The notes under the pieces: model-generated
What the model saw: only the letters and a program-made list of their open reading frames with translations
The model's database searches: none
Told to the model about the DNA's origin: nothing
Part shown: piece after piece, positions 43,814 through 44,020 of the stretch
How positions within the stretch are numbered: position 1 is the first letter of the stretch
How the letters are laid out: each line of letters starts with the position of its first letter
Made by a program: the position numbers and the translations under genes
Assembly: GCA_951406725.2 (NCBI GenBank)
Contig: OX597823.1
Coordinates: forward strand, 51,646,001 to 51,710,000
Length of the DNA: 64,000 nucleotides
DNA from: Octopus vulgaris
Lineage: Eukaryota
Direction of reading: 5' to 3'

Positions 43814-44020
43814 ATTACGGAGATGTACTTGCATAGCAAGTGACCTGATCTGAAATCGTGTGCTGAAACGAAAACAATTGCAGCGTGGAAGGTGTTTATA
43901 AGCTATTTAAGAAACACAAAATCCGTTAGATTAACTTCAAACATTTAAATTTAATTTGTCAAAATATTTTCGTCGCTTTGAGACCGTGACCTGTTCACTG
44001 ACAAAATTCCATGCTGCATT
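43814..44020 (-). mobile_element. PLE-like short element (family P5) in (TA)n
   Basis: Reverse-complement homolog of 62900-63080; contains an HHR. Confidence 0.8.
43955..44005 (-). ncRNA. Type I hammerhead ribozyme motif, G3-C8 swapped-core variant (GUGAACA)
   Basis: Minus strand: tttgtca-GTGAACA-g-gtcac-ggtctcaaa-gcgac-GAAA-atat-TT-tgacaaa. Stem I is 7 bp perfect and the palindrome is AAAATATTTT. Confidence 0.7.

Follow-up and report, generated by a model that had tools for sequence, protein, structure and literature searches.

Natural G3–C8 state of a predicted minimal type I hammerhead in a Penelope-like retrotransposon family of Octopus vulgaris

A dispersed repeat of ∼205 bp in the 2.8 Gb genome of Octopus vulgaris carries a motif whose hammerhead ancestry is hardly in doubt, and in which positions 3 and 8 of the core are G and C. 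This swap is a property of the family and not a peculiarity of the copy found in the window, the stretch of 64,000 nucleotides that was analysed here. C3–G8 is the general hammerhead state, and G3–C8 is therefore taken to be derived, a polarity assigned without a tree. The preferred reading, at a probability of roughly 0.6, is that of a minimal type I hammerhead in the pLTR of a Penelope-like retrotransposon (PLE) in which C3–G8 was changed to G3–C8, and whose source elements likely still self-cleave slowly as a dimer. Hammerhead searches take C3 and G8 to be all but fixed, and Rfam and CUGANGA descriptors consequently miss a family of more than 8000 copies. What appears to be new is G3–C8 as a natural family state; the layout of minimal type I hammerheads in PLEs, natural U3–A8 cores and engineered C3G/G8C mutants were already known.

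In the window, the repeat occupies positions 43815–44019 of the minus strand within a (TA)n tract and differs from the family majority by 2.3% (non-CpG divergence). Identical sequence borders full-length elements with RT and GIY-YIG, and the feature is therefore identified as a solo pLTR with tail of a PLE. A sequence-only reading had described a swapped-core hammerhead with a perfect 7 bp stem I and a GTGAACA core on the minus strand from 44005 to 43955, and the letters are exactly as it gave them; it overlooked the PLE pLTR identity and the damage to stem II in this copy. The 5′ strand of stem I (43999–44005; pairing probability 0.63–0.92 in a fold of the whole element) is complementary to the 3′ strand (43955–43961) at 7/7 Watson–Crick positions. 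Core positions 3–9, GTGAACA, lie at 43992–43998, with G3 at 43998 and C8 at 43993 in the place of C3 and G8. An extra G at 43991, between A9 and G10.1, is typical of PLE minimal hammerheads (PMC4209133), and 236 of the 246 copies that were aligned have G there. Stem II with its 9 nt loop (43972–43990; strands 43990–43986 and 43976–43972) has 5 bp in the family and one A–C mismatch in the window copy, the result of a private CpG change at 43987, where the family base is G. Its pairing probability is predicted by folding to be ∼0.4, compared with 0.99 in the family form, and the window copy probably folds worse than that form. Positions 43962–43971 hold G12-A13-A14-A15.1, the palindromic stem III/loop AATATT, U16.1 and U17: GAAA at 43971–43968 is followed by ATAT, U16.1 (43963) and U17 (43962). 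By hammerhead numbering, the predicted cut would fall between 43962 and 43961. The remaining stretch, 43815–43906, likely comprises the first codons of the PLE ORF through the common 3′ end (tail), with a frame that is open from the family ATG into the ORF at one locus (L186); this ATG, at 43906–43904, is mutated to ATA in the window copy, as judged against the family base at 43904.

In the family form, stems I and II enclose the core in a type I three-way junction, stem II being weakened in the window copy. U4, G5, A6, A9, G12, A13, A14 and the A15.1–U16.1 pair are all present, H17 is U, and the C3 and G8 that CUGANGA prescribes are absent. Positions 3 and 8 are nevertheless Watson–Crick complementary, as G–C in this family and as C–G in two related families described below (F2 and F3); the complementarity is seen in the letters and the tertiary pair is predicted. 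The extra base between 9 and 10.1 and the palindromic 15.1–16.1 segment are those of PLE minimal hammerheads. In a typical family copy, stems I and II fold with pairing probabilities of 0.87–1.0. ViennaRNA favours a G3–U17 pair that lengthens stem I, which is an inactive-type register, and cofolding favours a dimer by ∼3 kcal/mol, formed through swapped stems I/II and not through the palindromic stem III.

A first look at the genome gave 3037 candidate copies of the repeat. An exact 18-mer consisting of stem I, the core and GGTC was matched 7728 times with G3–C8, 479 times with G3 and a base other than C8, and 287 times with a base other than G3, whereas the reversed sequence gave 0 matches. 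Among the matches listed and scored by eye, position 8 was T in 53, G in 30 and A in 17 (100 of the 479), and position 3 was A in ∼60, T in ∼28 and C in ∼12 (100 of the 287); the single C3–G8 row among the latter proved to be a member of F3 and was set aside. A pattern built on the flanks only found 640 copies, and among the matches listed (100, scored by eye) 86 were G3–C8 and none C3–G8. A sample of 90 loci selected by their 3′ ends gave G3–C8 in 77 of 84 core-covering arms, ∼32 of them from one re-amplified unit. After removal of this unit and of query-biased loci, position 3 was G in 137/148 copies and position 8 was C in 134/153. In contigs from four sequencing runs with four other species labels, no change to C3 reached at least 3%, and at most one run had a G>C place that possibly corresponds to G8. 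It had been proposed that G3 is a family trait and that a genome-wide consensus would decide position 8; both points are borne out, most copies carrying C8 and neither G3–G8 nor random bases.

Could the motif be a chance look-alike, or a canonical hammerhead that decayed at random in the window copy alone? Rfam gives no hammerhead among the matches listed for the whole window (150 of 172), and none in the 91-base motif stretch even at E ≤ 10, as such an origin would have it. However, the 7728 identical 18-mers against none in the reversed control, together with the predominance of G3–C8 among the flank-selected copies, refute it, and position and fold are those of canonical motifs in related families; its probability is negligible, in line with the earlier argument that random decay is improbable.

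A sister copy lies on the plus strand at 62899–63080, with a 24 bp internal deletion and a 10–11 bp target-site duplication (62889–62899/63079–63089). Its motif (62913–62963) has the core GTGAAGA, that is, the minority state G3–G8, with a fully paired stem II, both as previously described. One of the two copies had been said to be mutated at position 8; since G3–C8 is the family state, it is the sister. The full pairing of its stem II results from two CpG decays that produced an A–T pair, a state also found in F2 and F3. When both strands of the 64 kb window were scanned with a descriptor in which positions 3, 7 and 8 were left free, three matches were obtained, two of them being the window copy and its sister. 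The third (42997–43042, plus strand) is weak and unrelated, with a TTGATAA core of the U3–A8 type, a 3 bp stem II and a 6 bp stem I.

Copies with G3–G8, estimated from the listed matches at ∼30% of the 479, amount to ∼1.8%, about twice the 1.0% background of C>G changes. The possibility that they form an ancestral clade was rejected, as they show no link to nine subfamily markers and diverge by 4.1%, compared with 3.9% for C8 copies. In several inverted pairs (L095, L096 and L184) the two arms both carry G3–G8, and RNA with a core predicted to be dead was therefore probably copied too. Within one inverted insertion (L168, L182 and L183), the two arms frequently disagree at several sites, position 8 among them, which would be in keeping with each insertion having drawn on two different RNA templates. 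Among dispersed copies, no additional conservation of the core and no purifying selection were detected (divergence of 4.5% in the core, 3.4% in the stems and 4–5% elsewhere) in a sample that is enriched for G8. The re-amplified unit accounts for 31 of the 90 sampled loci (L113, L126, L332, L341, L343, L346 and others; G000:C1), which share one identical inverted unit and its flanks. Its arms start at query positions 28 and 17, and it is one family insertion inside another repeat that was multiplied along with it.

The host element was recognized from one copy of the repeat that continues into a decayed Penelope-like ORF, the flank of which, used as a query, retrieved near-intact elements. At two loci (L185 and L186) the repeat stands at both ends of the ORF. 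At another (L191), a 1025-amino-acid open frame contains YVDD, a CX3CxxC linker and GIY-YIG, the last as Pfam PF01541 above the cut-off; Pfam gave no RT match on this frame, and the RT was assigned from motifs. The single ORF, with RT and, at its C-terminal end, GIY-YIG, is that of a C-terminal EN+ PLE, and the insertions have pLTRs on both sides, inverted and tandem arrangements and a tail, as PLE insertions do. Like Neptune-type C-terminal EN+ PLEs (Craig, 2021; PMC8557442), the elements combine RT, the CX3CxxC linker and a GIY-YIG with CCHH-like residues, and their insertions are 5′-truncated, inverted or tandem, with a one-sided tail and microsatellite neighbours; the likeness to Neptune rests on the linker motif, which is common to other clades too. 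Common 3′ ends lie at about query positions 205 and 150, an inverted partner is present at 63 of the 90 sampled loci (31 of these from the re-amplified unit), the neighbours are (TA)n and, of the 51 full copies, 11 have target duplications. Wherever a pLTR that covers the core adjoins a near-intact ORF (L185, L186, L190 and L191), it is G3–C8; other ORF-linked copies (L135, L151 and L154) include G3–G8. A non-LTR retrozyme was considered and rejected, as the unit is a pLTR that runs into a PLE ORF and, in the tandem arrays observed, (TA)n or host DNA separates the units. Repeats spaced by 3.4 and 2.6 kb (L090 and L092) contained no long ORF. At one locus (L189; G000:C6:75.389–75.393 Mb), an LTR-retrotransposon-like element with protease, RT and integrase-like ORFs lies inside a PLE copy.

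The near-intact elements form a young subfamily that differs from the majority at 16–17 sites, five of which fall in loop II, with the core and stems II and III unchanged; one gap falls in the T run and leaves the 7 bp stem I intact. As a sign of constraint, this constancy (0 changes compared with ∼2.7 expected) is suggestive but weak.

The commonest 5′ end of the repeat coincides with a signal resembling a branch point, pyrimidine tract and AG (L185:6960–6985; window 44020–44022). Among 52 copies that start at the AG before the motif, 34 have an extra G that replaces a templated C or T. This fits transcripts that were capped (or spliced) and uncut, the G possibly coming from the cap or from a tiny first exon. 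The window copy is best regarded as a passive insertion, which most likely arose when an uncut transcript was primed internally at its tail; internal priming has been shown for an anole element (PMC11167929). An overlapping constraint on a reading frame, or on a splice or promoter signal near this AG, might also have driven the swap with no part played by a ribozyme: the motif starts only ∼15 nt past the signal, and one short open frame of ∼40 codons crosses it. However, the main ORF begins ∼50 nt downstream of the motif, the short frame is open with either core state and the complementarity of positions 3 and 8 is left unexplained, which makes such a constraint very improbable.

Two further families place the swap in context. 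F2, a second PLE family in this genome with 54% identity in the RT part and frames of 1311–1312 amino acids, is young, with many near-identical copies. Its hammerhead stands in the same place (L227:1635–1680 and 6223–6270) and combines C3–G8 with a C that replaces the A of position 9, the extra G and U17. F3 (L235–L264) is 71% similar to the F2 pLTR and is known here from the repeat alone, with no ORF tied to it; it is older (∼83% identity among copies; 3085 candidates) and has C17, and its stem I appears to be bulged. Its core, CTGAAGA, differs from GTGAACA only at positions 3 and 8, and C3–G8 is present in 28 of 30 main copies. In an alignment of 12 rows (11 distinct) picked by hand from the three related families, both partners are altered in four of the 11 pairs (2.1–1.1, 3–8, 10.4–11.4 and 15.2–16.2), and 95.9% of the paired cells across the 11 distinct rows are complementary, compared with 26–49% in slid controls; with three lineages only, this covariation is a handful of events and not a statistic. 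To judge from these alignments, the swap is derived and compensatory relative to F2 and F3. The earlier claim of a compensatory exchange thus stands with respect to related C3–G8 families, and cleavage of G3–C8 RNA stays a prediction. That both bases changed while the pair was kept is indirect evidence of selection on an active fold. The three families (G3–C8/U17, C3–G8/C17 and C3–G8/C9/U17) provide a natural series for testing such selection.

A change from C3–G8 to U3–A8 takes two transitions with a possible U–G wobble intermediate, whereas G3–C8 takes two transversions through a G–G or C–C intermediate. Natural U3–A8 hammerheads are known (Perreault, 2011, PMC3088659; the Schistosoma Cercyon PLE, PMC4209133); they too show a compensatory 3–8 change, but to U3–A8 and not to G3–C8. 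Minimal type I hammerheads in the pLTRs of metazoan PLEs were described by Cervera and De la Pena (2014; PMC4209133) and are weak, dimer-dependent ribozymes (PMC4209133; PMC6765202). The present motif resembles those in PMC4209133 in its type I form, extra base between 9 and 10.1, G10.1–C11.1 pair and tiny palindromic stem III, as well as in its pLTR location, thousands of solo copies and opposite-strand pairs. It departs from them in its G3–C8 state, where C3–G8 and covariant U3–A8 are described there, and in its stem I of 7 bp. In the hammerhead of the Anolis PLE PAc, constructs of which cut only with protein present, a C3G/G8C double mutant partly restores the cleavage lost in either single mutant (PMC11167929), and engineered double mutants are also treated in a review (PMC8495972) and in PMC3884650. 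According to the latter, with data not shown there, G17 gives G3–C8 a higher activity than C17 does, a hint that base 17 can trap G3. The core state of these engineered mutants is identical to that found here; they are laboratory constructs, whereas G3–C8 here is a natural family state with U17. Other natural core deviations are catalogued in PMC10085705. In the text of the literature searched, including the supplements of PMC3088659 and bioRxiv 10.64898/2026.07.22.740005, G3–C8 appeared only as engineered mutants and no natural case was found; priority is uncertain.

In the proposed mechanism, stem III would be built by two RNA copies that pair at the AATATT palindrome, the G3–C8 pair would hold the ribose of position 8 in place, and the cut would follow U17, possibly aided by the PLE protein. 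U17 instead of C17 would weaken a competing pair between G3 and base 17, and may predate the swap, as F2 likewise has U17. Because the swap would keep the 3–8 pair, it is somewhat more probable than not that source elements are still cleaving.

A total of 3573 RNA reads, drawn from three runs with a related species label, showed no site with many molecule starts or ends; they are mostly read-through of dispersed copies, which makes this a weak test of cleavage. As they map to both strands and ∼90% continue into unlike sequence, they are no sign that the source elements are expressed. Copies that start at the cut are infrequent in the genome, where only 134 matches can be read as starting or breaking at query 55–66, around it. 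Among the matches listed (100 of 134, scored by eye), ∼14 begin exactly at the cut and 3–12 at each neighbouring position; of the exact starts, six are explainable by microhomology with stem I and two by internal deletions. Two of the 90 tail-selected copies start at the cut, and no peak of 5′ ends at this site was shown in either set. These results are compatible with cleavage, as the anole element, whose ribozyme is active, shows similar behaviour.

A genuine descendant of a hammerhead that has lost its cutting activity might look much the same; its fold would persist as a structure or a binding site for protein, or through inheritance from one successful source, and its swap would be a relic of past selection or a chance double change. 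Cleavage of the anole element is dispensable for insertion in vitro, with no RNA ends at the site (PMC11167929), which also bears on the role of PLE hammerheads in general. Furthermore, insertions in the present genome derive mostly from uncut RNA, G3–G8 arms appear to be mobile, the C9 of F2, which is young and has open ORFs, implies that cores may drift in these elements, and G3 is predicted to mispair with U17. However, the core differs from that of F3 at positions 3 and 8 only, these two being complementary, and the young subfamily has the core and stems of the old one with an altered loop II; loss of cutting is accordingly considered rather unlikely. The preferred reading of a swapped core that likely still cuts slowly has a stronger form, which is possible but held tentatively: a natural hammerhead that is active with its catalytic pair swapped by transversions, and that became fixed in a successful retrotransposon lineage spanning several species after crossing a non-cutting G3–G8 or C3–C8 step, with U17 permissive. 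Such an intermediate would be survivable, because the elements can move without cleavage. If this form is true, the family would document, in nature, how compensatory evolution proceeded within a ribozyme active site, and CUGANGA-based surveys would overlook whole high-copy ribozyme families.

Small hammerhead-like matches were also seen in unrelated repeats (L078:2938, L082:1903, L145:3080, L108 and L090), mostly with canonical cores and in one case with TTGAAAA.
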